64,000 nt of DNA from a virus (taxonomy: Duplodnaviria > Caudoviricetes): IMG/VR virus record IMGVR_UViG_3300033073_000243, positions 20,600 through 84,599 of that record, one strand, 5' to 3'. Both the position numbers and the translations under genes were made by a program. Shown here piece by piece: positions 376 to 27,488 of the stretch. Under the pieces are notes generated by a model. The model searched no databases. It saw nothing but the letters and a program-made list of their open reading frames with translations, and was not told the origin of the DNA. Within the stretch, counting starts at the first letter, position 1; every line of letters starts with the position of its first letter.

Positions 376-614
376 TGGATAATATTCAGGAACAAATACT
401 TGCAGAGCTTAAAAAGCAAAACGAGTATTTTGAGAAAATGGACTGGAAGCTTTGGATGCTTCAAAATATGATTAAGGCTATTGCCGAAGAGAATGGTTAT
501 ACATTTGATATCGAAGAAAACACAGCAACAGTCGAAACATATGAAGAGCCAGTAGAGCGCACAACTTCTGATCTCAAACCTAAATATGATGATAGTAATT
601 GGAGTTTAGAATGA
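375..614 (+). CDS. hypothetical protein (79 aa)
   Basis: ORF coupled to both neighbours (TAATG at the start, ATGA at the end). Confidence 0.6.
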   Translation: MDNIQEQILAELKKQNEYFEKMDWKLWMLQNMIKAIAEENGYTFDIEENTATVETYEEPVERTTSDLKPKYDDSNWSLE

Positions 615-988
615 CCAAAAAAATGATATGGGTTACTTTCCAAAAGGAAGGTATTCACAAGTATCCAGCGGCATTAACTGATCCTAACTTAGCTACAGGC
701 GACGAATACGATGTTAGCTTTTTAGGATATCCGCATCGTCATATATTTCATTTCAAAGTAGCAATTGAAGTGTTTCATGATGATCGTGACATTGAATTTA
801 TTCAATTTAAACGCTGGCTAGAAAACTTATACAAAGAAGCAACATTAACTCTTGACTACAAGAGTTGCGAAATGATTGCAGAAGATGTATATAATCAAAT
901 TAACGCAAGATATCCTAATAGGGATGTCTGGATTGATGTAAGTGAGGATAATGAAAATGGATGCCACATTCAATTTAACAAAGGGTAA
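611..988 (+). CDS. QueD-like / 6-pyruvoyl-tetrahydropterin synthase-like T-fold protein (DpdL-like)
   Basis: ATG at 611 overlaps the upstream TGA; LGYPHRHIFHF (LxxxHRHxF), IEFIQFK, SCEM and VSEDNENG motifs; next to a TGT-like gene. Confidence 0.7.
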   Translation: MTKKMIWVTFQKEGIHKYPAALTDPNLATGDEYDVSFLGYPHRHIFHFKVAIEVFHDDRDIEFIQFKRWLENLYKEATLTLDYKSCEMIAEDVYNQINARYPNRDVWIDVSEDNENGCHIQFNKG

Positions 989-998
989 AGTTCGCACT

Positions 999-1355
999 AT
1001 GAACCAATACCATAACAATGTTAGTCGTGCGATGATTCACATCAACGACATTAAGTATGACCTACTAAAGATTGCAGAAATGTATGACGGCATTCTGCAA
1101 GAAGGCTTAGGTCATTTGGCAGCAGATATGTTCCAAGCATATCTAAGTGACCTCCGTGGTAATGAATGGATTCATGACTACGAAGTTACTGAAATTGTTC
1201 TTAAAGAACAAAGCTATACTTACGATGTAAGTATTCAAATTACTAAGGATCGTACTCCTAAGAAACTAAAGATCCACGTCGGTCTTTACAAGAGTGCGTG
1301 GCCGGAGTTGGCTGCTACTATGAAATATACAGGCAGCGGATATGTCTCTAAGTAA
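999..1355 (+). CDS. hypothetical protein
   Basis: ORF; ATG at 999 preferred over the overlapping start at 942. Confidence 0.6.
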   Translation: MNQYHNNVSRAMIHINDIKYDLLKIAEMYDGILQEGLGHLAADMFQAYLSDLRGNEWIHDYEVTEIVLKEQSYTYDVSIQITKDRTPKKLKIHVGLYKSAWPELAATMKYTGSGYVSK

Positions 1356-2886
1356 AAAATCAAGAGTCGACTTACAAGCAAAGAATAAAGACTATGCAGT
1401 CTTTCTTCCGAGCATTAGCGGCTTTTACCAAGAGCAAGTAAGCAATCAGCAACAGGATCCTAACTGGATCTCATCTGATCGCTTACCGGCAGAGTTTGAA
1501 CAAGGAGTAGAAGGACTTAACTTCCTTAACAAGGAACAAGCTTACTTCTACTATCCAGATGCTCTTTACTCTGCTGGTCACGCTCAACTGAATATAACTA
1601 AGAGCGCAACAGAAGAAAGTATGATCCAAGACCGGGATCGTAAAAACACTTTCATCTTAGGCGACTCTGGTGGTTTCCAGATTGGTAAAGGTGTTATTAA
1701 CTTTGACTGGCAACACTTCTGGGAGAAGCAAGGCGATGCAGGTTATATCGGTAAAGCAGATAAAACCCGTATGGCTATTCTTAATTGGTTAGAGTACACT
1801 GCTGATTACAGCATGGTACTTGATATTCCAACTTGGGCGGCTGCTCCTATTAACCAAGAACGCACAGGACTTAGAGACTTTAAAGATTGCCTTAACGGAA
1901 CATTGTTTAACAATGATTTCTTCTTAAAGCATCGTCAAGGTAAAACTAAATTCCTAAATGTTCTGCAAGGCGGTAACAACGTCGATGCTGAGATTTGGTA
2001 CGAAGCTGTCAAACACTATCCATTTGAAGGTTGGGCGATGGGTGGTAATAACATGAAGGACGTGGACTTAATGTTACGCCGCTTGATTAAACTTCGTGAT
2101 GAAAAATTGCTAGAGCCAGGTCGTGACGTCATTCACTTCTTAGGTACAAGCAAACTCGAACTTGCTTGTTTGTTAACTGCGGTACAGCGTAACATTCGTG
2201 AGCATGTTAATCCTAACATGAAGGTAACTTATGACTGTGCTAGTCCGTTCTTGGCAACTGCCTACGGTCAAATCTATACACAGCATGTACACTTGAATAA
2301 GCGTTTTAGTTACATCATGGATAAAGCTATCGACGACAAACGATTGAGTGGTAGTAAGCTTCCATTGCCCTGGACTAGTCCTATCGCAGAACGAGTTACG
2401 ATGGGCGACTTGTGTTGGTACAAGCCAGGTGATACTAACAAGTTTGGCAAGGAATGTAAAACATCGTGGGATAGTTTCAGCTATGCAATTATGATGGCAC
2501 ATAATGTCTATCAACATATCGAAAGCGTTCAACGAGCAAATGCATTACTCGATACGGCATGTGCATTGCATAAGCCAGATCCAAGCAAGTTTAGCAAAGC
2601 TAAAGGTCTAAGTGCAGAACTAAACAACTGGGTTCCGCGAGCAGTTATATATGGTGTCGAACTAATTAACCGTGTGTTTACTAGCGAAACTCCTTATACT
2701 GAATTAGACAATGCACAAGCATTATTAGCAGAACTTAATAACAAGAAAACTCTTAAGACTACTGCGGCAAGTCATAGTATGTTGTTTGAAGTCATTGACC
2801 AAGGCAACGACAATGATGCAGAAGCTTCTGAAAATTGGGATGAAGATACTGCTAACGAATTACTACACGAAGCATTAGATGAGTAA
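1342..2886 (+). CDS. tRNA-guanine transglycosylase-like / DpdA-like base-exchange enzyme (514 aa)
   Basis: FILGDSGGFQIGKG (TGT DSGGFQ motif), MVLDIP, NVLQGG, IHFLGTS, YDCASPF; folE and queE nearby. Confidence 0.8.
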   Translation: MSLSKKSRVDLQAKNKDYAVFLPSISGFYQEQVSNQQQDPNWISSDRLPAEFEQGVEGLNFLNKEQAYFYYPDALYSAGHAQLNITKSATEESMIQDRDRKNTFILGDSGGFQIGKGVINFDWQHFWEKQGDAGYIGKADKTRMAILNWLEYTADYSMVLDIPTWAAAPINQERTGLRDFKDCLNGTLFNNDFFLKHRQGKTKFLNVLQGGNNVDAEIWYEAVKHYPFEGWAMGGNNMKDVDLMLRRLIKLRDEKLLEPGRDVIHFLGTSKLELACLLTAVQRNIREHVNPNMKVTYDCASPFLATAYGQIYTQHVHLNKRFSYIMDKAIDDKRLSGSKLPLPWTSPIAERVTMGDLCWYKPGDTNKFGKECKTSWDSFSYAIMMAHNVYQHIESVQRANALLDTACALHKPDPSKFSKAKGLSAELNNWVPRAVIYGVELINRVFTSETPYTELDNAQALLAELNNKKTLKTTAASHSMLFEVIDQGNDNDAEASENWDEDTANELLHEALDE

Positions 2887-3766
2887 AGCATTAGTAGTCG
2901 GACTAGGCATGGGGCAACAGTATGCCCTGTGGCTAGCCGAATTAGGTTACGATGTTTATACTGTAGATATTGATCCTAGCAAGGCAGCATCCTATACAGA
3001 TGTTGCTATTGCTTTGGGCGATCGTCCTGTTTTAGACATTGTTTATATCGGTACTCCAAACTGGACACACGAGCCTATTGCTAGACAAGTTGCTCCGCAT
3101 AGCAAACTAGTATTGGTAGAAAAGCCGGGCGTCAGGTATAGCAAAGATTGGCAACAATTGGTTGCGGCTTATCCAGACACTCGTATTATGATGGTTAAGA
3201 ACAATCAGTTCAGACCAGAAATAAAACGATTCAAACAATTAGCAGACCAAAGCGAACGAGTATATGTTCGTTGGAATAATGCCAATCGTATTCCGCATCC
3301 AGGTAGTTGGTTCACTACTAAATCTAAATCATTTGGCGGAGTGAGCAGAGACCTTATGCCTCACATGCTCAGTTATTACTGTGCGTTGACAAACTATACG
3401 CAAGGTGTTAAAATTAAAGGGTACGCAAAACAAAACTATGAACTCGAGGATATTCATAATACTGATTACGGCAGCGTTAATCCTAATGGCACTTACGATG
3501 TCGATGACTTCTGTCACTTTGAATTCAAGAATGGCGACACCACTTGGATTTTAAGTGCAAACTGGAAAACAAACTTAGATAACGATGATAGCAGTATTGC
3601 GTTTGGTATGAAGAACTCTGCCGTTAGACATGAGCTAGGTTTGTGCCCTGGAGTAGCGTATAAGAACATGATAACACTTGCGATGAACAACCTAAATAAC
3701 AATGAGTTCTGGCAACAACAGCTAGCACAAGATCTGTGGATTCATCAACAAATAGAAAATCTATGA
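2879..3766 (+). CDS. Gfo/Idh/MocA family NAD(P)-dependent oxidoreductase
   Basis: VVGLGMG Rossmann motif, IGTPNWTH, VLVEKPG, GGVSRDLMPH. Confidence 0.85.
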   Translation: MSKALVVGLGMGQQYALWLAELGYDVYTVDIDPSKAASYTDVAIALGDRPVLDIVYIGTPNWTHEPIARQVAPHSKLVLVEKPGVRYSKDWQQLVAAYPDTRIMMVKNNQFRPEIKRFKQLADQSERVYVRWNNANRIPHPGSWFTTKSKSFGGVSRDLMPHMLSYYCALTNYTQGVKIKGYAKQNYELEDIHNTDYGSVNPNGTYDVDDFCHFEFKNGDTTWILSANWKTNLDNDDSSIAFGMKNSAVRHELGLCPGVAYKNMITLAMNNLNNNEFWQQQLAQDLWIHQQIENL

Positions 3767-4671
3767 ACAGAGTATTAGTTACAACAGGCGAAGGTGAGTT
3801 TGAGGAAACCGCATACGATATTCCTGCATTACTAGAAGACGATCACATTTTCGTTCGTTCAATAATGACAGGCGTATGTCGTAGCGACATCGATATGATG
3901 CAAGGCAATTTCGGTCCATTGCCTAAACACATGCAAGGGCATGAAGGACTAGCACAAGTAGTAAGGATAGGTAAAAATGTCAAAGACGTCCAAAAAGGCG
4001 ACTATGTCGCAACCAGAGGAGAACCAGCTTATGCCGACGAATACATTGTTCGTCCTAGAGAGTATGTTCGCGTTCCAGAGGCTCTTCCTAGATATATCCT
4101 TGAGCCCGTGGCTTGCGGCATCAATGTGGTACAGCAACCCATTCGTGAAATTGCCGAACGAAGCGGTCCAGGACAACGACTCTTAATACTAGGCAGCGGC
4201 TTCTTAGCTTGGGTCGCTTACAACACAATCAAACTTAACCATTTGGATTTTGACATTACTGTGTTTGGACACAGCAACAAAGAACTTTGGGGAGATGCAC
4301 TAAGTCCAATATATGATGGGAAGTTTGATGTTGTTATTGATCTTAGCCCGCATTGCGATGTATTCCTAAATGACATGCTCAATAATGAAGCTCTTGTTGT
4401 TATGGGTGTAGAGAAGCAAGTAAACACTGACTTTGCTAGATTACTTTGGAAAGCTTGCACTATAGTATTTCCAAGTCCACGCACCGATAAATTCTACAAG
4501 TGTATGCAAGATGCGGCATATTGGGTAGAGAATGGTGACCTTGTGGTTGATAACTTTTGGACAAAAGGTTATAATAGAGATACAGAATGGCAACAAGCCT
4601 TTGCAGACGGTCTAAACAGACCTGCTGGTTATAGCAGAGGTTACATATATTGGAATAACAATGGCACTTGA
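3763..4671 (+). CDS. Zn-dependent medium-chain dehydrogenase (sorbitol/threonine dehydrogenase-like)
   Basis: GVCRSD, GHEG, LEPVACG, ILGSG; ATG at 3763 overlaps the upstream TGA. Confidence 0.85.
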   Translation: MNRVLVTTGEGEFEETAYDIPALLEDDHIFVRSIMTGVCRSDIDMMQGNFGPLPKHMQGHEGLAQVVRIGKNVKDVQKGDYVATRGEPAYADEYIVRPREYVRVPEALPRYILEPVACGINVVQQPIREIAERSGPGQRLLILGSGFLAWVAYNTIKLNHLDFDITVFGHSNKELWGDALSPIYDGKFDVVIDLSPHCDVFLNDMLNNEALVVMGVEKQVNTDFARLLWKACTIVFPSPRTDKFYKCMQDAAYWVENGDLVVDNFWTKGYNRDTEWQQAFADGLNRPAGYSRGYIYWNNNGT

Positions 4672-5176
4672 TACAGTTGAAAGAAAAGCGGCAACATACT
4701 TCATCGGCACAGAAGTAGAACATACAGCAATGTACAATGAAAAAACTTTGTTTGTTGTAGGAGTTCGTCCTGTTGATGAAGTCGCGAAACATGCTAGACA
4801 GCATAACATTCGTCATTTATACTTTGGCACAAGTCAAAGTTTCCATCCTAAAACAAATGAAGAGTGGGCAGAGTGGAATAACATGATTACTCCACTACTA
4901 CAAGAAGGCTTCTGGGTTACATTAGACTTTGGTGTAGAATATGCAGATACTTTGCATGAAGAAGGATGGTGCGAGTTTAATACTTTTATTCCTATGATTA
5001 GTGTTAAGCTTCCTTACATTAAGTTATACAACTATAATGCAACTCTTAAGATTGACGACACCACATGGGGTCACAGTAATCCAGGAGTATGGTGTCATAG
5101 TTTACATGACTTAATGGATCGTAAAGTTTACACCGACTGGAAAGACTATGTAGGAGACGAACCAGTAAATGGCTAA
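4661..5176 (+). CDS. hypothetical protein embedded in the deazaguanine/sugar operon
   Basis: 171-aa ORF overlapping both neighbours. Confidence 0.65.
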   Translation: MALDTVERKAATYFIGTEVEHTAMYNEKTLFVVGVRPVDEVAKHARQHNIRHLYFGTSQSFHPKTNEEWAEWNNMITPLLQEGFWVTLDFGVEYADTLHEEGWCEFNTFIPMISVKLPYIKLYNYNATLKIDDTTWGHSNPGVWCHSLHDLMDRKVYTDWKDYVGDEPVNG

Positions 5177-6245
5177 AATTTTCTTAGTTGACTTAGAAGC
5201 AGTCGAAACCCGTTACACAGGAGAATGGAAACATTATGTACCCGAAATACTTACGAAACAAGGACATCAAGTTCAAATTATCTCTGGTCCTACGGACATT
5301 CCTAGTGCCACTACTCCTGGTGCCTTTCTTAATTTTGGGGGCACTAATATTTACAAGTCTGCACAAGTTGAGCAGATGGGCCGTTTATTTTGCGACGGAG
5401 CCGTTTGCCCCGGCGATCACTTTATTTTTACTGATGCTTGGCACCCTGGTATTATCAACTTGAAATACATGAGCGAGCTTCTTAACATTCCAGTTAAGAT
5501 TCACGCATTGTGGCATGCCGGTAGCTATGACCCTGCCGACTTCTTAGGACGCTTAATTGGTGATGCTCCGTGGGTTAGACATGCAGAGAAAAGCTTCTTC
5601 CACGCTATTGATTATAACTACTTTGCCACTAGCTTCCATATCAACATGTTTGCTAAAAACTTGCTAGATACAAACATTGGTACAATGTACAATTATAAAG
5701 AAGCTAAAAAGATTATTCGTACAGGTTGGCCCATGGATTATATGGATAATACTTTGCAAGTTTACAAAGGTATGAAGAAAACAAATACCATTGTATTCCC
5801 ACATCGTATTGCACCCGAGAAACAAGTTGAAATCTTCCGTGACCTAAAAGAACAACTACCACAATATAACTTTGTTGTTTGCCAAGATCAGCAATTAACA
5901 AAGAATGAATATCACAATATTCTTGGCGAGGCTAAAATTGTGTTTAGTGCAAGTTTGCAAGAAACACTAGGTATCGGCTGTTATGAAGGTTCTATTGTTG
6001 ATGCTATTCCAATGGTACCAAACAGACTAAGCTATAGCGAAATGTATTTAGACGAGTTTAAGTATCCCAGTGTATGGACTGCCGACTTTGACCACTACAA
6101 AACTCGTAGAAAAGACGTTTGTGATAAAATTGTCGACTACATAGAAAACTATGAGTCATACTTGCCAGCACTTAAAAAGCAAACTGCTTTGCTTACTAAT
6201 GATTTCTTCAGTGCAGGCGATTTATTAAGGAACATAAATGATTAA
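5169..6245 (+). CDS. GT-B (GT4-like) glycosyltransferase resembling the GTDC1/DUF3524 type
   Basis: IVFPHRIAPEK and FSASLQETLGIGCYEG...PMVPNRLSYSEM (ExxGxxxxE donor-binding motif). Confidence 0.75.
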   Translation: MAKIFLVDLEAVETRYTGEWKHYVPEILTKQGHQVQIISGPTDIPSATTPGAFLNFGGTNIYKSAQVEQMGRLFCDGAVCPGDHFIFTDAWHPGIINLKYMSELLNIPVKIHALWHAGSYDPADFLGRLIGDAPWVRHAEKSFFHAIDYNYFATSFHINMFAKNLLDTNIGTMYNYKEAKKIIRTGWPMDYMDNTLQVYKGMKKTNTIVFPHRIAPEKQVEIFRDLKEQLPQYNFVVCQDQQLTKNEYHNILGEAKIVFSASLQETLGIGCYEGSIVDAIPMVPNRLSYSEMYLDEFKYPSVWTADFDHYKTRRKDVCDKIVDYIENYESYLPALKKQTALLTNDFFSAGDLLRNIND

Positions 6246-6615
6246 AGTACAATTTACGGGCAGTAGCCCAAACATGTATCAAAATGATCGCAGTTACAAC
6301 CTGCCTAGCATCACTGGTGCAGTGCAATGGAATGGGCAAAACAAATGGTTCGAAGTTAGCACTGGGTCTGGCTGGCAGCGTATTGACAATACTGTGGAGT
6401 TCAGCGTTAATCAACCGTCACATCCCGACCTGTGGTCAATGCATTATTGGATTGAAGAACAAAAGAAAGAACAGGCTAAGGAAAAGGAATTGCGTAGTAA
6501 ATATCCAGCACTAGACGAAGCTTATAAACACATGGAGTTTATTAGAGAAATCGTTAAAGCTGGACCAGAGCAAGAGAACGAGTCTGAAGCTGGGCTAGTA
6601 CAATCAGGACCATGA
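6238..6615 (+). CDS. hypothetical protein
   Basis: 125-aa ORF overlapping both neighbours. Confidence 0.6.
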   Translation: MIKVQFTGSSPNMYQNDRSYNLPSITGAVQWNGQNKWFEVSTGSGWQRIDNTVEFSVNQPSHPDLWSMHYWIEEQKKEQAKEKELRSKYPALDEAYKHMEFIREIVKAGPEQENESEAGLVQSGP

Positions 6616-7079
6616 TATTTACTAAAGTTCGATCATTAAAAGAGCAAGGCAAGAAAATTGGTATTACATTTAGTACATTCGATCTTCTCCACGCTGGTCA
6701 TGTTGCCATGCTTGCCGAAGCAAAAAACCACTGCGACTACCTTATCTGCGGATTACAAACAGACCCAACCATTGATAGACCAGATACGAAAAATAAACCC
6801 ATCCAGAGTATTGTGGAGAGACAAATTCAACTTGCGGCGTGCCGTTATGTTGATGAAGTGGTTGTGTACTCCACAGAACAAGACCTCGTTGACCTCCTAC
6901 TTATTCTCCCAGTTGATGTCAGAATACTTGGTGTCGAATATGCAGAAAAGGACTTCACTGGCAGAAGTGAATGCGAACTCAGATCCATCGACATTGTCTT
7001 TAACGGTCGAGATCACTCCTTTAGTTCCAGTAGCTTGCGTAAGCGTGTCTATGATAGTGAAGTCGAAAAACGAGGATAA
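6612..7079 (+). CDS. cytidylyltransferase (TagD / glycerol-3-phosphate cytidylyltransferase-like)
   Basis: TFDLLHAGH (HxGH), GLQTDP, CRYVDEV, SSSSLR. Confidence 0.85.
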   Translation: MIFTKVRSLKEQGKKIGITFSTFDLLHAGHVAMLAEAKNHCDYLICGLQTDPTIDRPDTKNKPIQSIVERQIQLAACRYVDEVVVYSTEQDLVDLLLILPVDVRILGVEYAEKDFTGRSECELRSIDIVFNGRDHSFSSSSLRKRVYDSEVEKRG

Positions 7080-7082
7080 AGA

Positions 7083-7889
7083 ATGAAAACAAAAGTAGCG
7101 GTTATTGGGTTAGGATTTGTTGGAAGTGCAATATATACTTCCTTTCAACTCTATCAACCTACACTCGAAGTAGTAGGTATAGATCCTGCCAAAGGATATA
7201 ACACACCATTATCAGATATCAAAGACTTTGACGGTGTGTTTGTATGTGTGCCCAGTCCACAGTTAGAAGATGGTAGTTGTGATACAAGCATATTGGAATC
7301 AGTTATAAAAGAACTAGATCAAGTTGGGTTCAGCGGCGTTATTATTAGTAAAGTAACAGCACCGCCGGCTGTGTATCAAAAGCTACAAGAACAACATAGC
7401 AACCTAGTTCATGCACCGGAGTTTTTAACTGCGGCTAATTCCTTTATTGATTATAGTACTGGCAAGTTTGCTATCATAGGAGGTCGTATTTCTGCATTTC
7501 GTTCGGAAGCAGAACGGCTTATTAGAATTAGTCAAACAAAGTTAGAAACCGTTATGCATTGTAGCATCGGAGAAGCAAGTTTAGCAAAGTACAGTATTAA
7601 TTCATTCTTAGCTACCAAAGTAGTCTTTATGAATGAAGTTGCCAAACTAACAGAAGCATCAGGTTGTAATTGGGAAACTGTTAGCAGTTTGATTAATCTA
7701 GATCATAGGATCGGTTCCAGTCACATGAAGGTACCCGGTCCGGATGGGGAATATGGCTTTGGTGGCCATTGTTTCCCAAAGGATACTAACGCATTGCTCA
7801 AATACGCAGAATCCGTTGATTCTAATCTAAGCGTTTTGGATGCCGCGGTAAAGAAAAACCTAGTAATTAGGTTGACTGATCCTAAATAA
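7083..7889 (+). CDS. UDP-glucose/GDP-mannose dehydrogenase family protein lacking the C-terminal domain
   Basis: IGLGFVG, CVPSP, PEFL, KYSINSFLATKVVFMNE, GFGGHCFPKD; only 268 aa. Confidence 0.85.
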   Translation: MKTKVAVIGLGFVGSAIYTSFQLYQPTLEVVGIDPAKGYNTPLSDIKDFDGVFVCVPSPQLEDGSCDTSILESVIKELDQVGFSGVIISKVTAPPAVYQKLQEQHSNLVHAPEFLTAANSFIDYSTGKFAIIGGRISAFRSEAERLIRISQTKLETVMHCSIGEASLAKYSINSFLATKVVFMNEVAKLTEASGCNWETVSSLINLDHRIGSSHMKVPGPDGEYGFGGHCFPKDTNALLKYAESVDSNLSVLDAAVKKNLVIRLTDPK

Positions 7890-7908
7890 TAGTTGTATAA
7901 TCTAAATA
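7872..7908 (+). promoter_or_regulatory. sigma70-like promoter (TTGACT-18-TATAAT) plus CTAAATA late-like motifs upstream of folE
   Basis: TTGACT 7872-7877, TATAAT 7896-7901, CTAAATA 7882-7888 and 7902-7908. Confidence 0.45.
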
Positions 7909-7943
7909 CATTTGTGACCCACCACATTAACTCGGAGAAAAAA

Positions 7944-8663
7944 TTGACAATACTAAAATATAGAGAAGAAGACGGACGACCTCTTAGCCAGGTTATCCGC
8001 GATAGACTTAAACGCGATAACAAACGCTTTTGGGCAGGCGATAACATTAGTGATTATATCAGCGATGTTGAAAAAGATGCTCTAATCGACGAAGCAACTA
8101 CAGCATTTGAACAAGTGCTAGACACATTGCTAATTGACAGGGAAACAGATCCCAACTCACAAGGTACAGCAAGACGTCTTGCTAAAATGTACTACAATGA
8201 AATAATGGCAGGTAGATATGATCCAGCACCAGACGCAACAGCATTTCCAAATGATTCGAAGGACCGTTATGAAGGCATGCTGGTTGTTCGCAGTGAGCTT
8301 CGCAGTATGTGTAGCCATCATCACCAACCTGTGGTTGGCGTTGCTTATATTGGTATTATTGCTGCCGAGAAACTCATTGGACTTTCGAAGTATACAAGAA
8401 TCGCCCAGTGGTGTGCAAGACGAGGTACTCTCCAGGAGGAACTTGCTAATGACATTGCTCGGGAAATCGAAAAAGCCACAGGGGCAAAAGACCTAGGCGT
8501 TTATATTCAAGCAGTTCACGGATGCTGTGAGAATCGAGGCATTATGGCTCATAGTAGCTTAACACAGACAACAGTGTTAAGAGGTGCATTTAAAGATGAT
8601 ATGGGTACAAAGAAAGAGTTCTTTGACAACATCAAAATGCAACAGGAATTTGCGCCACGATAA
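7944..8663 (+). CDS. folE: GTP cyclohydrolase I
   Basis: LRSMCSHHHQP, IGLSKYTRI, TLQEELA, HGCCENRG; probable TTG start at 7944 with GGAG 6 nt upstream (track start 7893). Confidence 0.92.
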   Translation: MTILKYREEDGRPLSQVIRDRLKRDNKRFWAGDNISDYISDVEKDALIDEATTAFEQVLDTLLIDRETDPNSQGTARRLAKMYYNEIMAGRYDPAPDATAFPNDSKDRYEGMLVVRSELRSMCSHHHQPVVGVAYIGIIAAEKLIGLSKYTRIAQWCARRGTLQEELANDIAREIEKATGAKDLGVYIQAVHGCCENRGIMAHSSLTQTTVLRGAFKDDMGTKKEFFDNIKMQQEFAPR

Positions 8664-8992
8664 TGGCAAATCAATTTCCATTTCACGGAATAACAGGACC
8701 TGCGGGTCCTATTGGTGCTATTGGTGCAACTGGCAGTAACATGTCTTGGACTAATAGTGTATCGACTAGTGCATTTGAAATACGACAAAATAATAGTATC
8801 TTGCGTATCGATACAGACGGAACAATTACAACTCCCGGTGCAGGTAGTATACACGCTGACGAATGGATTGAAACTATTAAACTCATGAAACAACTTATCA
8901 TGGATATTGGCAGAGATCCAGAACTTAGCGAAAAGTTTCCTTACTTAAAGGAAGCCGCACATAAATGGCTAATGAAGGAGCTATCTAAATGA
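8663..8992 (+). CDS. hypothetical protein with a short Gly-X-Y stretch
   Basis: GITGPAGPIGAIGATGSN near the N-terminus; coupled ORF. Confidence 0.55.
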   Translation: MANQFPFHGITGPAGPIGAIGATGSNMSWTNSVSTSAFEIRQNNSILRIDTDGTITTPGAGSIHADEWIETIKLMKQLIMDIGRDPELSEKFPYLKEAAHKWLMKELSK

Positions 8993-9441
8993 AGGTTTAT
9001 AGAATTACTCCGCTTGAAAAGAAAAGCATCTACTACAAAGCGGAAATGTATAGAGACAATCCAGACGGTACTATAAGCTGGTTTAATGTAGAAGATCATT
9101 ACCGATGGGGTCAGGGCTTTATTAATGAAGATATGGATTGCAATCTTCCTCTTAAAGATAGTGAAGAAGCATATTGTGATCCAACTGCCGGCTGGGGAGC
9201 AGAATTAGACGATCAAGTTGCTTGTTGGTTCGAATACAGCGATGACATTCCACAAGAAGAACGAGATCAAATTGAAGAAGCATATCACGAAGGCGGCGCT
9301 GGGTTCTTACACGACGGTGACCATGAATGGCAAGTTGAAGATGATTACATAGTTGTAATAGGTCCTTTCAAAGTTGATTTATGTGAAGAAGATGGCACTG
9401 TATTACAAGAAAATATTCCACTAAGAACAAGGGGTGAATAA
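8989..9441 (+). CDS. acidic hypothetical protein (paralog 1)
   Basis: D/E-rich; shares EKKS, RWG and GP motifs with the next ORF. Confidence 0.65.
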   Translation: MKVYRITPLEKKSIYYKAEMYRDNPDGTISWFNVEDHYRWGQGFINEDMDCNLPLKDSEEAYCDPTAGWGAELDDQVACWFEYSDDIPQEERDQIEEAYHEGGAGFLHDGDHEWQVEDDYIVVIGPFKVDLCEEDGTVLQENIPLRTRGE

Positions 9442-9851
9442 TGGCAACATGGAAAATATCTAATAGAGAAAAGAAAAGCTGCGAAGAACGCACATTCTGG
9501 ACGAAGGACGGCGTTACTGTTATTCGTACAGAAGGTTTCCGCTGGGGAACTTTTACAGTGGAAACTACTGACGACAATCCGCCAGAGGGCATCACGGAAG
9601 AGAATGAAGACGGAATTGACATGTATGGTTATTCTGGCGAAAATGCAGAAGATGGTGCTCAACTTGATATAATGGATGACGGCTGGTATGGCGACTGGGA
9701 GTTTCCAGACGATATGGACGAAGAAGAACAAGAGCGCATCATAGAAGGCTGGGACGAAGACAGCTATGATTTTATGGAAGGCGACGGATGGTACAACGAC
9801 GAAACAGAAGCTTGGTTGTTTGGACCACTTGACATCGAAAGGATAGATTAA
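9441..9851 (+). CDS. acidic hypothetical protein (paralog 2)
   Basis: About 42 of 136 residues are D/E by hand count. Confidence 0.65.
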   Translation: MATWKISNREKKSCEERTFWTKDGVTVIRTEGFRWGTFTVETTDDNPPEGITEENEDGIDMYGYSGENAEDGAQLDIMDDGWYGDWEFPDDMDEEEQERIIEGWDEDSYDFMEGDGWYNDETEAWLFGPLDIERID

Positions 9852-9852
9852 A

Positions 9853-10188
9853 ATGGTAACAAAACCAAAAGCAACTAAAAAGACTAAAGAGCCAGCAAAG
9901 GCACCAAAAGTTAAAGTAACAAAAGCTAAGAAAGAAAAAATCACAACTTGGCCACATGTTGTTAAAGGTACTCACTTAACTGTAACAACATACGAAGACG
10001 GACACACTGAATTAGTTTGGGATGACGAACAGTTAGCTAAAGAAGTTCACGATGCTATTGCTAGCGTAGAATTAGCGAATATGAAGCCAGCAGTAAGAGC
10101 TAAAGTTGCAGTTCGTAAAAAGAAAGAAGCAGAGAAAAAGGCAGTACCAAAGATTACCGCCGCAAAGAAAACTAAGAGTAAAAAGTAA
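9853..10188 (+). CDS. basic Lys/Ala/Pro-rich protein with histone-H1-like tails
   Basis: KPKATKKTKEPAKAPK and RKKKEAEKK...AAKKTKSKK flank a small core. Confidence 0.6.
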   Translation: MVTKPKATKKTKEPAKAPKVKVTKAKKEKITTWPHVVKGTHLTVTTYEDGHTELVWDDEQLAKEVHDAIASVELANMKPAVRAKVAVRKKKEAEKKAVPKITAAKKTKSKK

Positions 10189-10331
10189 TGCCGACATTCC
10201 TTTCTATCATAGGATTTATTATTAGTATGGGTCTTGTATCATATGTAGTGAACAAGACTATACTCAAAAATATAAAAGGATGCAGTGGCGATTGTAATCA
10301 AGGACGCCGCGCATGTAATTGTTCAGAATAA
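10188..10331 (+). CDS. 47-aa membrane-anchored Cys-rich peptide (not in the ORF track)
   Basis: Hand translation MPTFLSIIGFIISMGLVSYVVNKTILKNIKGCSGDCNQGRRACNCSE; start overlaps the upstream TAA (TAATG) and the stop is 1 nt before the next ATG. Confidence 0.7.
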   Translation: MPTFLSIIGFIISMGLVSYVVNKTILKNIKGCSGDCNQGRRACNCSE

Positions 10332-10332
10332 C

Positions 10333-10566
10333 ATGTCCAAATCTATATTACTCAATATTAACTTTTGGGAAGCAAAGCAGTTAGAATATTGGTTGAAAGA
10401 TAATTATCCAGATTGTACTATTAAACCAGTTAACCACGACTTATATGTTCCGCCCGAAGAACACGAATACTATCGAGTAGAAGGTAAAATTGATGTTGAC
10501 TTGTCATGTATATTACAGTTAAAATATGGGTTATCAGATAATCATTTAAACCATGGAAAAAATTAA
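10333..10566 (+). CDS. hypothetical protein
   Basis: ATG at 10333 follows the Cys-rich ORF. Confidence 0.55.
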   Translation: MSKSILLNINFWEAKQLEYWLKDNYPDCTIKPVNHDLYVPPEEHEYYRVEGKIDVDLSCILQLKYGLSDNHLNHGKN

Positions 10567-11413
10567 AGTAAGCGAAATCTTTTATAGCGCACAAGGCGAG
10601 GGACGCTTTATTGGTGTCCCTAGTGTCTTTTTTAGAACCTTTGGATGTAACTTCAAATGCCCCGGCTTTGGATTACCGCCCGGTGTAAAAACTACAGAGC
10701 CAGACGAAATAGGTGCTAAGGTTCATCTATACAAATCATTTATGGATCTGCCATTAGCTAACAGTGGATGCGATAGTTATGCATCTTGGCATCCTGCATT
10801 TAAACATTTAAGTCCAAGCTATTCTGTCGATGAAGCAGTTGATGCAATGCTTAAACTCACACCCAATAATAAATGGACACAAACTAACGGCAACGATGTT
10901 CATCTTGTTATTACCGGCGGTGAACCATTGCTAGGTTGGCAAGCCTTATATCCAGAACTACTAAGTCATAACCGCATGAAAGACTTACATAATCTTACAT
11001 TTGAAACTAATGGTACTCAACCATTACATCATGCGTTTAAGTATTTCTTAATGGACGGTTTTAGACTTCCACGAGATAACATTACATTTAGTGTAAGTCC
11101 TAAGCTAAGTGCAAGTGGTGAGGCATGGAACGATGCTATCTGTCCTGATGTAGTTAGAGAGTATCAACAAGTAGGTTACACTTATCTAAAGTTTGTTGTA
11201 GATAAAACAGCAGACTTTGAAGAAGTAGAAGCCGCAGTAAATGAATATCGCAAAGCCGGGTTCCAAGGTCCAGTTTATGTTATGCCTGTTGGTGGTACAG
11301 ATAATGCATACTTTGCAAATAGCAAACATATCGCAGATGTTGCATTGGAAAAAGGATACCGTTATAGTCCACGTCTACATGTAGACATTTGGAGCAATGG
11401 GTGGGGCAAGTGA
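10553..11413 (+). CDS. queE: 7-carboxy-7-deazaguanine synthase-like radical SAM enzyme
   Basis: EIFYSAQGEG, FFRTFGCNFKC...GCDS, VITGGEP, FETNGT, VSPKL, RYSPRLH. Confidence 0.85.
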   Translation: MEKIKVSEIFYSAQGEGRFIGVPSVFFRTFGCNFKCPGFGLPPGVKTTEPDEIGAKVHLYKSFMDLPLANSGCDSYASWHPAFKHLSPSYSVDEAVDAMLKLTPNNKWTQTNGNDVHLVITGGEPLLGWQALYPELLSHNRMKDLHNLTFETNGTQPLHHAFKYFLMDGFRLPRDNITFSVSPKLSASGEAWNDAICPDVVREYQQVGYTYLKFVVDKTADFEEVEAAVNEYRKAGFQGPVYVMPVGGTDNAYFANSKHIADVALEKGYRYSPRLHVDIWSNGWGK

Positions 11414-11798: not shown

Positions 11799-12136
11799 AA
11801 GCACAAAAACCAGCTCAGGGTATTATGTTACAAGGCGACTTCGGTAACAGCAAAAACTTCAAAGTAGAATGTGATTGTTCCAGTGACGATCACTCTGTCT
11901 ATATGTGGATTGAAGTATCAGAAGATAAAGACATTCCAGATGTGGAAGTCAGCTTCTATGTAAAAACCTGGACGCCAGTATGGCAAGGATGGGGTCAACG
12001 CCTTAAAGCAGTATATGAAATTTTGTTTAAAGGCGTACACAGACAAGAACATCATATGCTTTTAAATAAGCAAAGTGCATTGAACTTTGCAGAGACTATC
12101 AAGCAAACAGTTAAAGAAATGGAAGGAAAGAAATGA
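11795..12136 (+). CDS. hypothetical protein
   Basis: ATGA-coupled ORF, 113 aa. Confidence 0.6.
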   Translation: MKAQKPAQGIMLQGDFGNSKNFKVECDCSSDDHSVYMWIEVSEDKDIPDVEVSFYVKTWTPVWQGWGQRLKAVYEILFKGVHRQEHHMLLNKQSALNFAETIKQTVKEMEGKK

Positions 12137-13233
12137 GTTATCTATTTACAAGTGAGAGTGTTTCAGAAGGACATCCAGATAAGGTAGCTGATGCTATCAG
12201 TGATGCCGTTCTAGATTTAGTTATGTCCAAAGAAGATACTTCTTTGCGTTGTGCTTGCGAAACATTAGTAACAACTAACAGAGTTGTACTAGCAGGCGAA
12301 TATAAAGGTATTCTACATGAAGAAGAAGTAGAAAGTGCAGTCCGTAAGGTCATTAAAGACATCGGATATGAGCAACAAGGATTTGATTGGCGCACTGCTG
12401 AAATCACAAACCTATTACACGAACAAAGTGCCGATATTGCTCTTGGCACTGATAATTTTGGTGCGGGCGATCAGGGTCTAATGTTCGGTTATGCATGTAA
12501 TGAGACTAGTGCTTATATGCCCAGCGCCATTTATTGGAGCCATCGTATTGTAGAAGAATTAGCTCGTTTACGCAAAGTAGGCACAATAGCTTGGTTAGAG
12601 CCCGATGCCAAGAGTCAAGTTACTTTTGAATATAACGATGATGGTACGCCAAAACGAATTGCAAAAGTTGTTTGCTCAACACAACACGCACCTGATGTTG
12701 ATTTGTATGCGTTGCGTTTGGGTATTACGGAAATTATTCGTGCAATTTTACCTAAAGAATATGTTGATACAAATACTGAGTTTTACATTAATCCTACTGG
12801 TCGTTTTGTTGTAGGCGGACCTGATGGGGATACTGGACTCACAGGCAGAAAGATTATTGTGGATACTTACGGTGGTTACAGTCCTCATGGCGGCGGCGCC
12901 TTCTCGGGAAAAGATCCAACTAAGGTAGACCGCAGTGCCGCATACATGATGCGTTACATTGCCAAGAACATTGTAGCAAGTGGTCGTGCATCTTGGGCTA
13001 CATGTCAAATCAGTTATGCTATTGGTATGGCTGAACCTATGAGCTTCTATATCGAATGCGAAGATAAGGCCTTAGCTAGAGACTTAACAATGCTCATTCC
13101 AAAAGTAGTTGACCTTACACCAAAAGGGATTATTGACAAGTTCCAATTGTTCCGCCCTATCTATAGCAAGACAACTAACTATGGACACTTTGGCAAAGAT
13201 TACTTGCCATGGGAAAAAGTAGACTTATTTTAA
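12133..13233 (+). CDS. metK: S-adenosylmethionine synthetase
   Basis: FTSESVSEGHPDK, GAGDQG, GGGAFSGKDPTKVDRS, YGHFG. Confidence 0.97.
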   Translation: MSYLFTSESVSEGHPDKVADAISDAVLDLVMSKEDTSLRCACETLVTTNRVVLAGEYKGILHEEEVESAVRKVIKDIGYEQQGFDWRTAEITNLLHEQSADIALGTDNFGAGDQGLMFGYACNETSAYMPSAIYWSHRIVEELARLRKVGTIAWLEPDAKSQVTFEYNDDGTPKRIAKVVCSTQHAPDVDLYALRLGITEIIRAILPKEYVDTNTEFYINPTGRFVVGGPDGDTGLTGRKIIVDTYGGYSPHGGGAFSGKDPTKVDRSAAYMMRYIAKNIVASGRASWATCQISYAIGMAEPMSFYIECEDKALARDLTMLIPKVVDLTPKGIIDKFQLFRPIYSKTTNYGHFGKDYLPWEKVDLF

Positions 13234-26131: not shown

Positions 26132-26592
26132 AAGCAATATTTGCTATCGATACTAAAAATGGTATCGGCAAAAACGGAACCCTTCCTTGGCCTAAAAGCA
26201 AAGAAGATTTTGCATGGTTCAAAGAACACACAACAGGAAAGACAATAGTAATGGGTCGCAATACATGGGACGACCCTGCTTTCCCTAAACCCTTACCTAA
26301 TAGAACTAACATTGTTATTACAAGTAAACCTATTAGCATTGATAAAGTTATCACAACTAACTCTATCGACGATCCCATTATCCCCGATGATGCTTTTGTT
26401 ATTGGTGGAGCAAATTTAATAAAAAGCTTTTCAGACAAACTAGATACAATCTACATTACACGATTTAACAAAGACTACAATTGCGATGTGTTTGTTGATA
26501 TAGATCAACTACTAGACAATTTTAGAATCATAGAATCAAAAGTCGTAGGTGATCTTATTTTTGAAACTTGGATATTATGCAACAATACTTAA
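26128..26592 (+). CDS. folA: dihydrofolate reductase
   Basis: GIGKNGTLPWP, VMGRNTW, PLPNRTNIV, IGGA. Confidence 0.95.
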   Translation: MKAIFAIDTKNGIGKNGTLPWPKSKEDFAWFKEHTTGKTIVMGRNTWDDPAFPKPLPNRTNIVITSKPISIDKVITTNSIDDPIIPDDAFVIGGANLIKSFSDKLDTIYITRFNKDYNCDVFVDIDQLLDNFRIIESKVVGDLIFETWILCNNT

Positions 26593-27488
26593 ACGACTTA
26601 CAATACATTTTAGACAACGGCGTTGAAAGTAACGACCGCACTGGCACAGGTACCAAAAGTATATTTGGTATGCAAACACGCTACAACTTAGAAAAAGGAT
26701 TCCCTGCTGTTACTACAAAGAAACTAGCATGGAAAGCTGTTGTTAGTGAACTACTATGGTTCATAGAGGGAAGCGGAGATGAAAGACGACTCGCTGAGAT
26801 ATTACATGGAACTCGTGACGCTAGCAAGTCAACGATATGGACGGCCAACGCTAGAGCAGATTATTGGACTCCAAAAGCAGAGTATCCCGGAGACCTCGGA
26901 CGGGTTTATGGAGTACAATGGCGCAAATGGCGCACACCAGTAGAACATAAAGCAACTACATTTAAAGATGACTTTGGCAGTACATACAGTAGAGCAGGTT
27001 ATGTCCACTTTAAAGAAGTCGATCAACTTTCAAACTTGATTGAAGGTATCAAATCTAAACCAGAAGATCGCAGACATATCTTATCCGCTTGGAATCCTGG
27101 CGAACTAGATAACATGGCATTACCTCCTTGCCATTCATTCGCACAGTTTTATGTTCGCAATGGAAAATTGAGCTGTCAAATGTATCAACGAAGTGCTGAC
27201 TTCTTCTTGGGCATTCCTTTTAATATTGCCAGCTATAGTTTACTAACACATATGATTGCACAAGCTTGTGACTTGGGCGTAGGAGAATTCATCCATACTA
27301 TAGGTGATGCTCACATATACAACAACCATATAGAACAAGTTAAAGAACAACTTGCAAGAACACCATTAGCATTACCTACACTGAAACTTAATCCTAATAT
27401 TAAGGATATCACAAAGTTTACCATGGAAGATATTGTGTTAGAGAACTACGAAAGCCTAGGCACTATTAAAGCGCCTATGGCTGTTTAA
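26577..27488 (+). CDS. thyA: thymidylate synthase
   Basis: DRTGTGT, ELLWF, LGRVYG, MALPPCH, YQRSAD, PFNIASY, GDAHIY. Confidence 0.97.
   Translation: MQQYLNDLQYILDNGVESNDRTGTGTKSIFGMQTRYNLEKGFPAVTTKKLAWKAVVSELLWFIEGSGDERRLAEILHGTRDASKSTIWTANARADYWTPKAEYPGDLGRVYGVQWRKWRTPVEHKATTFKDDFGSTYSRAGYVHFKEVDQLSNLIEGIKSKPEDRRHILSAWNPGELDNMALPPCHSFAQFYVRNGKLSCQMYQRSADFFLGIPFNIASYSLLTHMIAQACDLGVGEFIHTIGDAHIYNNHIEQVKEQLARTPLALPTLKLNPNIKDITKFTMEDIVLENYESLGTIKAPMAV

Follow-up and report, generated by a model that had tools for sequence, protein, structure and literature searches.

Does a giant bacteriophage attach a sugar to a 7-deazaguanine base in its DNA? The question is raised by a gene cluster at positions 611–11413 of a 64,000-nucleotide (nt) stretch of virus DNA (bases 20600–84599 of the 84.6-kb IMG/VR virus record IMGVR_UViG_3300033073_000243; the whole stretch is called the window here), in which genes of a 7-deazaguanine pathway are interleaved with genes for sugar enzymes. 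An earlier note on this DNA had proposed that the cluster makes a novel glycosylated deazapurine. We found that a glycosyltransferase gene is linked to the gene for DpdL, an enzyme of the deazaguanine pathway, and that the four further sugar genes are optional; the sugar on the base is what we infer from this linkage. The explanation that we favour, with somewhat better than even confidence, is a QueC-free, DpdL-type 7-deazaguanine DNA-modification module of giant phages that is extended by a dedicated glycosyltransferase. The case for deazaguanine modification of DNA is strong; a glycosylated base is well motivated by linkage, and we lean slightly towards it.

All genes at 611–11413 lie on the + strand, and those between 2879 and 8663 are joined by overlaps of 1–31 nt or by 3-nt gaps. 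Every gene that the earlier note had named was recovered, in its place and on that strand, by open reading frames (ORFs) and by profile and fold matches. With a completeness of about 22% by CheckV, the source record represents part of a giant phage genome. A megablast search of the region against a phage collection gave no match, and the phage has no close cultured relative there.

A deazaguanine pathway through DpdL

7-Carboxy-7-deazaguanine (CDG) is made by FolE, QueD and QueE. The cluster encodes FolE, GTP cyclohydrolase I (7893–8663; PF01227, E 1e-38; NCBIfam FolE, E 8e-39), and a QueE-like radical S-adenosylmethionine (SAM) enzyme, 7-carboxy-7-deazaguanine synthase (10553–11413; phrog_2076, E 5e-54; NCBIfam QueE models, E 4e-13 to 3e-7, under their cut-offs); the QueE copies in two relatives, G001 and G002, are 80% identical. 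The first gene of the cluster (611–988) encodes a T-fold protein of 129 amino acids (aa), whose LGYPHRHIF stretch fits LxxxHRHxF, the DpdL signature that replaces the CxxxHGH of QueD. The protein matches phrog_17812 (E 6e-35) and, in tblastn searches, the DpdL proteins of phages ACP17 (56% identity, E 5e-37) and phiST (33% identity, E 5e-9); the Pfam PTPS model gave no match to it. DpdL was defined, by this change of motif, as a paralogue of QueD that occurs in phages with DpdA, FolE, QueD and QueE but without QueC, and its proposed activity, so far a proposal only, is decarboxylation of CDG to 7-deazaguanine (Cui et al., NAR 2023, PMC10516641). By analogy, the window DpdL may decarboxylate CDG.

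Pfam models for QueC, TGT and PTPS/QueD found nothing in the whole 84.6-kb record, and QueF was likewise not found there; since the record is only about 22% of the genome, a gene missing from it carries little weight alone. We therefore turn to five larger relatives, in which QueC, QueF and QueD were looked for. The 99%-complete, 353-kb genome of one of them (G004, which holds locus L074) gave no match to QueC or QueF and has a canonical QueD gene some 30 kb away from the cluster; QueD lies apart from the cluster in three of the five relatives (G004 and two others). G004 has the DpdA-like gene (see below), DpdL, the glycosyltransferase, FolE and QueD, and gave no match to the window QueE at E 1e-5; its QueE is either very divergent or host-supplied. 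To judge from these relatives, the pathway most likely goes no further than CDG before DpdL takes over, and its QueD would come from a gene elsewhere or from the host. The earlier remark that no QueC was in view thus holds for the record and for a nearly complete relative, and a search of larger genomes for queC, queD and queF, which the note had suggested, bears out the absence of QueC and QueF from that relative and places QueD outside the cluster, but turned up a divergent QueC-like gene in one other relative (G003), which is weighed below. Overall, the evidence supports a route via CDG and DpdL without QueC.

TGT-family enzymes (TGT, tRNA-guanine transglycosylase) exchange guanine for a deazaguanine base. 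The 514-aa product of 1342–2886 is a very divergent branch of this family, placed solely by fold and by profile–profile comparison. It did not match the Pfam TGT model PF01702 even at E 10, and nothing significant was found for it in Pfam, NCBIfam, PHROGs, a phmmer search of PDB sequences or two profile searches of PDB sequences, where a profile search reaches TGT at E 2.5. Its AlphaFold2 model (predicted local distance difference test score, pLDDT, 88.4; built on 31 diverse relatives) was compared with the PDB by Foldseek, and all matches listed in the first 50 ranks are tRNA-guanine transglycosylases (E ~2e-7; template-modelling (TM) score to target ~0.5). In an hhalign comparison of the 514-aa family with Escherichia coli Tgt (84% probability, E 7e-6), DSGGFQ, LDIP, LQGG, WAMGG and YDCASP pair with Tgt motifs. 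D108, D161, G230 and D298 do not vary among 31 diverse members of the family, and the invariant aspartates, read from this alignment, would be the equivalents of the catalytic residues of Tgt.

The same method relates the 514-aa family to the TGT-like gene of the ACP17 cluster (93.6%) and, weakly and over part of the length, to the 259-aa DpdA3 of phiST (68.6%); tblastn does not link the 514-aa protein with the ACP17 and phiST proteins. We call it DpdA-like; it may belong inside or beside DpdA3. At 50% identity this large family comprises 913 clusters. It is found near QueE in phage PA5oct, and in Vibrio phage 2.275.O it adjoins genes annotated as QueF, a queuosine biosynthesis protein, a nucleophile aminohydrolase and FolE. 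This context, with FolE, QueE, DpdL or QueF as neighbours in phages, suggests that the DpdA-like enzyme acts on DNA and inserts a deazaguanine.

A GT4-like glycosyltransferase in the cluster

The 358-aa protein encoded at 5169–6245 is predicted to adopt, over its whole length, a two-Rossmann-domain GT-B fold near the retaining GT4 enzymes. Foldseek matched its AlphaFold2 model (pLDDT 84.5) to BshA, MshA and glycogen synthase (E ~5e-9), and VIA-align superposed 296–318 residues on sucrose-phosphate synthase, BshA and MshA (Z 21–23.5; root-mean-square deviation 3.3–4.0). The best match among the predicted viral structures of BFVD is ASD50404 of ACP17 (TM 0.84–0.88), to which the window protein is 36% identical. 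In the family alignment R213, K218 and E273 are invariant and E265, which forms an E-x7-E pair with E273, is nearly so, and all are kept down to 24% identity; by analogy with GT4 enzymes, these four residues would hold the diphosphate and ribose of the donor. The window protein scores 12.2 bits with Pfam Glycos_transf_1, below the cut-off of 26.4; of 12 family members, eight match this model weakly, and the member at locus L016 passes at 30.4 bits. At least 8000 relatives of the glycosyltransferase were found.

Kinship with QTMAN (GTDC1), the enzyme that mannosylates queuosine, was considered but found no support: the QTMAN_N model (PF12038) failed to match the protein or any part of the record even at E 10, and the Foldseek and VIA-align matches listed do not include QTMAN. 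No T4 glucosyltransferase is among the fold matches listed either.

Linkage of the glycosyltransferase to DpdL

To see which genes of the cluster belong together, we compared the window proteins by tblastn with 84 loci, namely 80 viral contigs that encode the transglycosylase and four loci of cultured phages. DpdL had a match in 72 of them, the 171-aa protein encoded at 4661–5176 in 67, the glycosyltransferase in 59, FolE in 53 and QueE in 41. Many of the loci end soon after the transglycosylase gene. Where a viral locus extends at least about 6 kb downstream, a match to the glycosyltransferase is missing only from L007, L034, L066 and L070, a count read from the match table by eye. Two of these, L066 and L070, are also without DpdL and the 171-aa protein; such joint loss would fit a functional unit of the three, though the contigs are short. 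On these 20–26-kb contigs we noted the transglycosylase, FolE, QueE, a cytidylyltransferase and MetK, with none of DpdL, the 171-aa protein and the glycosyltransferase within 11 kb. In nine loci a more distant GT4 protein (21–23% identity) occupies the place of the glycosyltransferase; in L016 (8725–10895), the one locus checked, this second GT4 type is the member that passes the Pfam cut-off, and it adjoins a nucleotide-sugar epimerase/dehydratase.

The core set is thus the DpdA-like gene, the 171-aa protein, DpdL, the glycosyltransferase, FolE and QueE. The counts across the 84 loci make the glycosyltransferase part of this core and the other sugar genes two optional cassettes. The earlier note had proposed to inspect the neighbourhood of the TGT-like gene, and had tied its idea to the co-occurrence of the sugar genes with that gene in relatives. 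On this point the relatives give a divided picture: the glycosyltransferase does co-occur with it, being present in nearly all loci that have enough downstream sequence, whereas the four other sugar genes, each in 9–11 of the 84 loci, come and go.

The pairing extends to cultured phages. Among cultured phages, 18 records gave matches covering at least 80% of the glycosyltransferase (eleven PA5oct-type records, two ACP17 records, Phosso, X1, BUDD, BUCT-ZZ01 and BCSR5), and all 18 also encode DpdL. Ten records have DpdL without the glycosyltransferase, including the phiST group; phiST DNA was shown by mass spectrometry to contain plain 7-deazaguanine deoxynucleoside (dDG; PMC10516641). The glycosyltransferase and DpdL genes are adjacent or at most one gene apart in ACP17, PA5oct, Phosso, BUCT-ZZ01 and X1, five phages that are unrelated and differ in gene order. 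The order is QueD, FolE, the 171-aa homologue, the TGT-like gene, glycosyltransferase, DpdL and QueE in ACP17; glycosyltransferase, transglycosylase, DpdL and QueE in X1; and DpdL, then glycosyltransferase, in BUCT-ZZ01. In Phosso, DpdL and the glycosyltransferase stand together 170 kb from the phage's own transglycosylase gene. Neither DpdL nor the glycosyltransferase was found in Vibrio phage 2.275.O, which has a transglycosylase of the same family. From the pairing in cultured phages and this absence, the glycosyltransferase follows DpdL and not the transglycosylase subtype.

The glycosyltransferase family also occurs in alphaproteobacteria, including Magnetospirillum, Pelagibacterium, Methylobacterium and Sulfitobacter. 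The alphaproteobacterial genomes with the glycosyltransferase that were searched have the DpdA-like gene in 18 of 18 cases and DpdL in 13 of 18, and the DpdA-like gene adjoins the glycosyltransferase gene in all four loci whose coordinates were compared. In Magnetospirillum aberrantis SpK (L124, 6330–12059 and 14922–15494) a protein with a CoiA nuclease domain, the glycosyltransferase, DpdL, the DpdA-like enzyme and QueD are encoded one after another in this order, with an integrase 4 kb onward and an HEPN_LA2681 protein upstream. This island looks like a mobile, restriction-modification-like element, which fits DNA as the target. A 288-aa gene in it was tried as a candidate QueE and ruled out.

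Two optional cassettes of sugar enzymes

The window carries both cassettes. Cassette A, between the transglycosylase gene and the gene for the 171-aa protein, consists of a Gfo/Idh/MocA sugar oxidoreductase (2879–3766; PF01408, E 2e-7) and a medium-chain protein like zinc alcohol dehydrogenases (3736–4671; PF08240 (ADH_N), E 2e-10; alcohol and polyol dehydrogenases of NCBIfam and the PDB match it weakly). Each has a match in 11 of the 84 loci, and the oxidoreductase gene is always paired with the other. The nearest solved relative of the oxidoreductase is DgpA (7xr9, E 1e-8), an enzyme that oxidises the sugar 3-hydroxyl of intact C-glycosides. Cassette B, between the glycosyltransferase and FolE genes, consists of a 125-aa protein without a named family (6238–6615), a HIGH-motif cytidylyl/adenylyltransferase (6612–7079) and a short protein of the UDP-glucose/GDP-mannose dehydrogenase family (7083–7889), with matches in 5, 11 and 9 of the 84 loci, respectively. 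The five loci with the 125-aa protein (L005 and L008–L011) all also have the cytidylyltransferase and the short dehydrogenase; the protein matched no family.

The cytidylyltransferase (PF01467, E 1e-12) matches RfaE domain II (E 1e-22) and TagD (E 1e-15) of NCBIfam, both under their cut-offs, and, in the PDB, ethanolamine-phosphate cytidylyltransferase (E 4e-19) and TagD (E 3e-12); the cytidylyltransferases of ethanolamine phosphate and glycerol 3-phosphate, and the domain of HldE that forms ADP-heptose, are the nearest to it. The last gene of the cassette had been called a UDP-sugar dehydrogenase. The family is right (PF00984, E 9e-23; PF03721, E 2e-12), but this is a short form: the protein retains the Rossmann domain and the GFGGHCFPKD motif of the catalytic cysteine and aligns to about residues 54–301 of 446-aa UDP-glucose dehydrogenases, and the C-terminal domain, which binds the nucleotide in those enzymes, is without a match. 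At the corresponding position, relative L011 carries an ORF of 262 aa. All accessory enzymes score under the curated cut-offs of named NCBIfam families.

In our interpretation we are least sure about what the four extra sugar enzymes do. The short dehydrogenase, the likeness to DgpA and the presence of a glycosyltransferase about 70% identical to the window copy in loci with and without the cassettes hint, weakly, that the cassettes may remodel a sugar that is already attached rather than make the donor. Relatives hold other extras at the same place, with different sugar enzymes beside the glycosyltransferase. L011 (8493–16655) encodes a SulP permease, a DUF6071 protein, a protein of the fatty-acid-hydroxylase family and one of 306 aa that gave a weak PP-loop match; L019 (12044–16151) encodes a cytidylyltransferase–cupin fusion, a YhhQ/Vut_1 transporter and a phosphoribosyltransferase.

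Other genes of the locus

The 171-aa protein had been entered in the earlier note as an unknown ORF. It belongs to a large conserved family within the core set: none of its 4578 homologues carries a name or a Pfam domain, and 40 positions of the family, many of them polar, are invariant. It had no match in Pfam, NCBIfam, PHROG or PDB-profile searches and no usable match in the Atlas. The ACP17 homologue lies directly upstream of the TGT-like gene; that of PA5oct lies elsewhere in the genome. Comparison by hhalign with small neighbour genes of Phosso, BUCT-ZZ01 and X1 was negative, as were BLASTP comparisons with the phiST ATPase and with a 172-aa PA5oct protein.

Between the DpdL and transglycosylase genes lies an ORF of up to 137 aa (942–1355), of uncertain start codon, which was seen in 18 of the 84 loci and matched no family. 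The earlier description had the genes running into folE, with queE following. Overlapping or very short junctions do lead up to folE, but five small ORFs of 93–150 aa (8663–10566) separate it from queE. They are poorly conserved (each in 3–6 of the 84 loci), gave no significant family match and probably stand outside the pathway. A full-length S-adenosylmethionine synthetase (12133–13233, + strand; three MetK domains, E 1e-33 to 1e-57), 0.7 kb past the QueE gene and found in 7 of the 84 loci, is a possible source of SAM for QueE. At the other end, the 3′ end of a phrog_12062 gene occupies positions 1–375; this gene precedes the transglycosylase gene in 81 of the 84 loci and is probably a synteny anchor, not a member of the pathway. 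Its PA5oct counterpart was found in virions by mass spectrometry. A scan for promoters and terminators was uninformative, with counts close to the shuffled expectation.

A proposed route and its alternatives

In the route that we propose, GTP would be converted to CDG, as in the known enzymology, by FolE and QueE together with a QueD whose gene lies in another part of the genome or which the host supplies. DpdL would turn CDG into the form that is inserted, by decarboxylation to 7-deazaguanine if the published proposal holds. The DpdA-like enzyme, possibly aided by the 171-aa protein, would then swap guanine in DNA for the deazaguanine. As linkage suggests, the GT4-like glycosyltransferase would move a sugar from a nucleotide sugar to the deazaguanine, most likely once it is in DNA, and cassettes A and B may diversify the sugar in this phage. 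The modification would shield the DNA of the phage against host nucleases. As 7-deazaguanine lacks a hydroxyl, we name only candidates for the acceptor: the 2-amino group, or the electron-rich C7 that decarboxylation would bare. In huimycin, whose biosynthesis includes glycosylation of a free 7-deazapurine by HuiG, the sugar is reportedly on the 2-amino nitrogen, an atom that the paper on HuiG does not name.

Two earlier sets of results touch on this route. When expressed in E. coli without other genes, dpdA and dpdL of ACP17 gave no dDG, and the authors suggested that further enzymes are needed, among other explanations (PMC10516641). This failure fits a need for the glycosyltransferase, the 171-aa protein or both, as it fits the other explanations that the authors offered. 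PA5oct, in which a deazaguanine system has been noted (Iyer et al., PMC7824862), has DNA that resists restriction at G-containing sites and is cut by nucleases specific for hypermodified DNA; the restriction tests point to a modified G of undefined chemistry (PMC12191111, 2025 preprint).

Several points weigh against a glycosylated deazaguanine. As noted, phiST makes plain dDG with DpdL and has no glycosyltransferase, so DpdL does not require one. A sugar on 7-deazaguanine, which lacks a hydroxyl, would need N2, O6 or a ring carbon as its acceptor, and we know of no DNA glycosyltransferase that uses these. The similarity of the glycosyltransferase in loci with and without the cassettes means that these may have no part in supplying its donor and could belong to a different pathway. 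Relative G003 encodes, 50 kb from its cluster, a divergent QueC-like protein of 211 aa (L087:1060–1695) with an SGGMDS PP-loop and a QueC-type cysteine cluster; neither the 84.6-kb record nor the four other relatives yielded a counterpart of this gene. Only 22% of the phage genome is visible, and nucleoside data for this phage, ACP17 or PA5oct were not found in the searchable literature.

The phiST precedent would also be expected if the module made plain 7-deazaguanine or CDG DNA, and the sugar genes were merely co-transcribed early genes that serve an envelope polysaccharide, to block superinfection, or glycosylate virion proteins. Iyer et al. read clusters of nucleotide-sugar and glycosyltransferase genes in giant phages as modifiers of surface polysaccharides (PMC7824862), and the four accessory sugar genes, which are sparse among the loci, belong to general PHROG families. 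An envelope role, however, predicts no particular linkage, and the glycosyltransferase stays beside DpdL or the transglycosylase despite rearrangement, in unrelated phages and in bacterial islands, and is missing from deazaguanine clusters that lack DpdL; we consider this explanation unlikely. In another alternative, the glycosyltransferase would act on a small molecule instead of on DNA, be it a free 7-deazapurine, before insertion or as a separate metabolite, or a pterin intermediate of FolE and QueD. HuiG, a PF13439 glycosyltransferase, does glycosylate a free 7-deazapurine (10.64898/2026.04.15.718813), a tetrahydrobiopterin glucosyltransferase (9v0l) stands at rank 44 of the fold matches, and some related clusters contain a phosphoribosyltransferase. 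Yet the biopterin enzyme is no better a match than dozens of other GT4 proteins, and the nuclease-domain protein in the bacterial islands fits a mark on DNA. Moreover, TGT pockets, in general, read the N1/N2/O6 face of the base, which makes insertion of a bulky glycosylated base unlikely. We give a small-molecule substrate a low probability.

Two further explanations seem to us highly improbable. The glycosyltransferase-like protein could be a non-catalytic partner, for instance a DNA-binding or scaffolding subunit of the transglycosylase, as its score of 12 bits with Glycos_transf_1 and the general tendency of TGT enzymes to form heteromers might suggest; the conservation of R213, K218, E265 and E273 down to distant members, and the clustering of nucleotide-sugar enzymes beside the glycosyltransferase in relatives, argue for catalysis. 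Alternatively, it could decorate another base, such as a hydroxymethylated pyrimidine as in the T-even phages, with the deazaguanine genes as an independent second system. Known phage DNA glycosyltransferases target hydroxymethyl- or hydroxy-pyrimidines (PMC13216743, PMC13326640), and 78% of the genome lies outside the record. We saw no sign of a pyrimidine hydroxymethylase in the 84.6-kb record, however, where the sole gene of the thymidylate synthase family (window 26580–27485) scores 357 bits over the full ThyA model, like a canonical ThyA; the link of the glycosyltransferase to DpdL, and the fold matches listed, without a T4 glucosyltransferase among them, also speak against this explanation.

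A glycosylated deazaguanine in DNA, to return to the explanation we favour, can be taken one step further. These phages and some alphaproteobacterial islands would put a sugar on 7-deazaguanine in DNA, the first glycosylated purine in a genome; DpdL may expose C7 or make the base ready in some other way, so that a C- or N-linked glycoside results; and two optional enzymes that lack nucleotide-binding parts, the DgpA-like 3-oxidase and the short 6-dehydrogenase-like protein, may remodel the sugar on the DNA itself, giving lineage-specific variants. To this fuller version we assign a little less than an even chance.

If a sugar-bearing deazaguanine is indeed present, it would explain why dDG was not reconstituted from dpdA and dpdL of ACP17 alone, and would identify the G modification of PA5oct-type phages, with consequences for restriction, CRISPR and the sequencing of phage DNA. 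It would also provide new enzymes for site-specific glycosylation of DNA, and either of the two candidate acceptors, the 2-amino group or C7, would be new for DNA. As the core genes sit in the cultured phages ACP17, PA5oct, X1, BUCT-ZZ01 and Phosso, the prediction is directly testable by mass spectrometry.

Comparison with known systems

To our knowledge, all known sugar-bearing DNA bases are pyrimidines. Full-text searches of the searchable literature returned no report of a sugar-bearing deazaguanine in DNA, and no glycosylated purine of any other kind in DNA is described there; neither Cui et al. (PMC10516641) nor Hutinet et al. mention a glycosyltransferase. The closest characterized system, DpdL/DpdA3 of phiST, which makes dDG, has in common with the window FolE, QueE, a DpdL with LxxxHRHxF, a TGT-like inserting enzyme and the lack of QueC (PMC10516641). 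It differs in having neither the glycosyltransferase, the 171-aa protein nor the sugar enzymes, in the length of its DpdA3 (259 aa, against 514 aa here) and in having QueD inside the cluster, whereas QueD was not found in our record. The clusters of ACP17 and PA5oct are nearer: both phages have DpdL, QueE, the glycosyltransferase and the TGT-like gene as well as the 171-aa protein, and ACP17, the one of the two in which FolE and QueD were looked for, has these too and keeps all its genes contiguous; none of the window's four accessory sugar genes is in the cluster stretches listed for these phages.

The α- and β-glucosyltransferases of T4 are likewise GT-B enzymes encoded with base-modification genes, and their sugar, added after replication as protection from restriction, serves as our working analogy. 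Their acceptor, however, is the hydroxymethyl group of a pyrimidine, 5-hydroxymethylcytosine, whereas no hydroxymethylase was seen here and the predicted fold is nearer to the retaining GT4 enzymes BshA and MshA. Glycosyltransferases do act on 7-deazapurines elsewhere. QTMAN, which acts on queuosine in eukaryotic tRNA, shares with our proposal the concept of a glycosyltransferase working on a 7-deazaguanine derivative in a nucleic acid, but queuosine offers cyclopentenediol hydroxyls, which 7-deazaguanine and CDG lack. HuiG is encoded beside genes of the FolE/QueD/QueE type and places a sugar onto a 7-deazapurine (10.64898/2026.04.15.718813); its substrate, by description, sets it apart, being the free base of O-methylated preQ0 (preQ0, 7-cyano-7-deazaguanine) in a secondary-metabolite cluster without a transglycosylase. 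Finally, the bacterial Dpd restriction-modification systems (DpdA/B/C), which place preQ0 or 7-amido-7-deazaguanine in DNA, share insertion of a deazaguanine by a TGT-family enzyme, and a nuclease-domain protein is encoded in the bacterial islands found here. In contrast to those systems, no genes of the QueC, DpdB or DpdC type were seen, and DpdL and the glycosyltransferase stand in their place.

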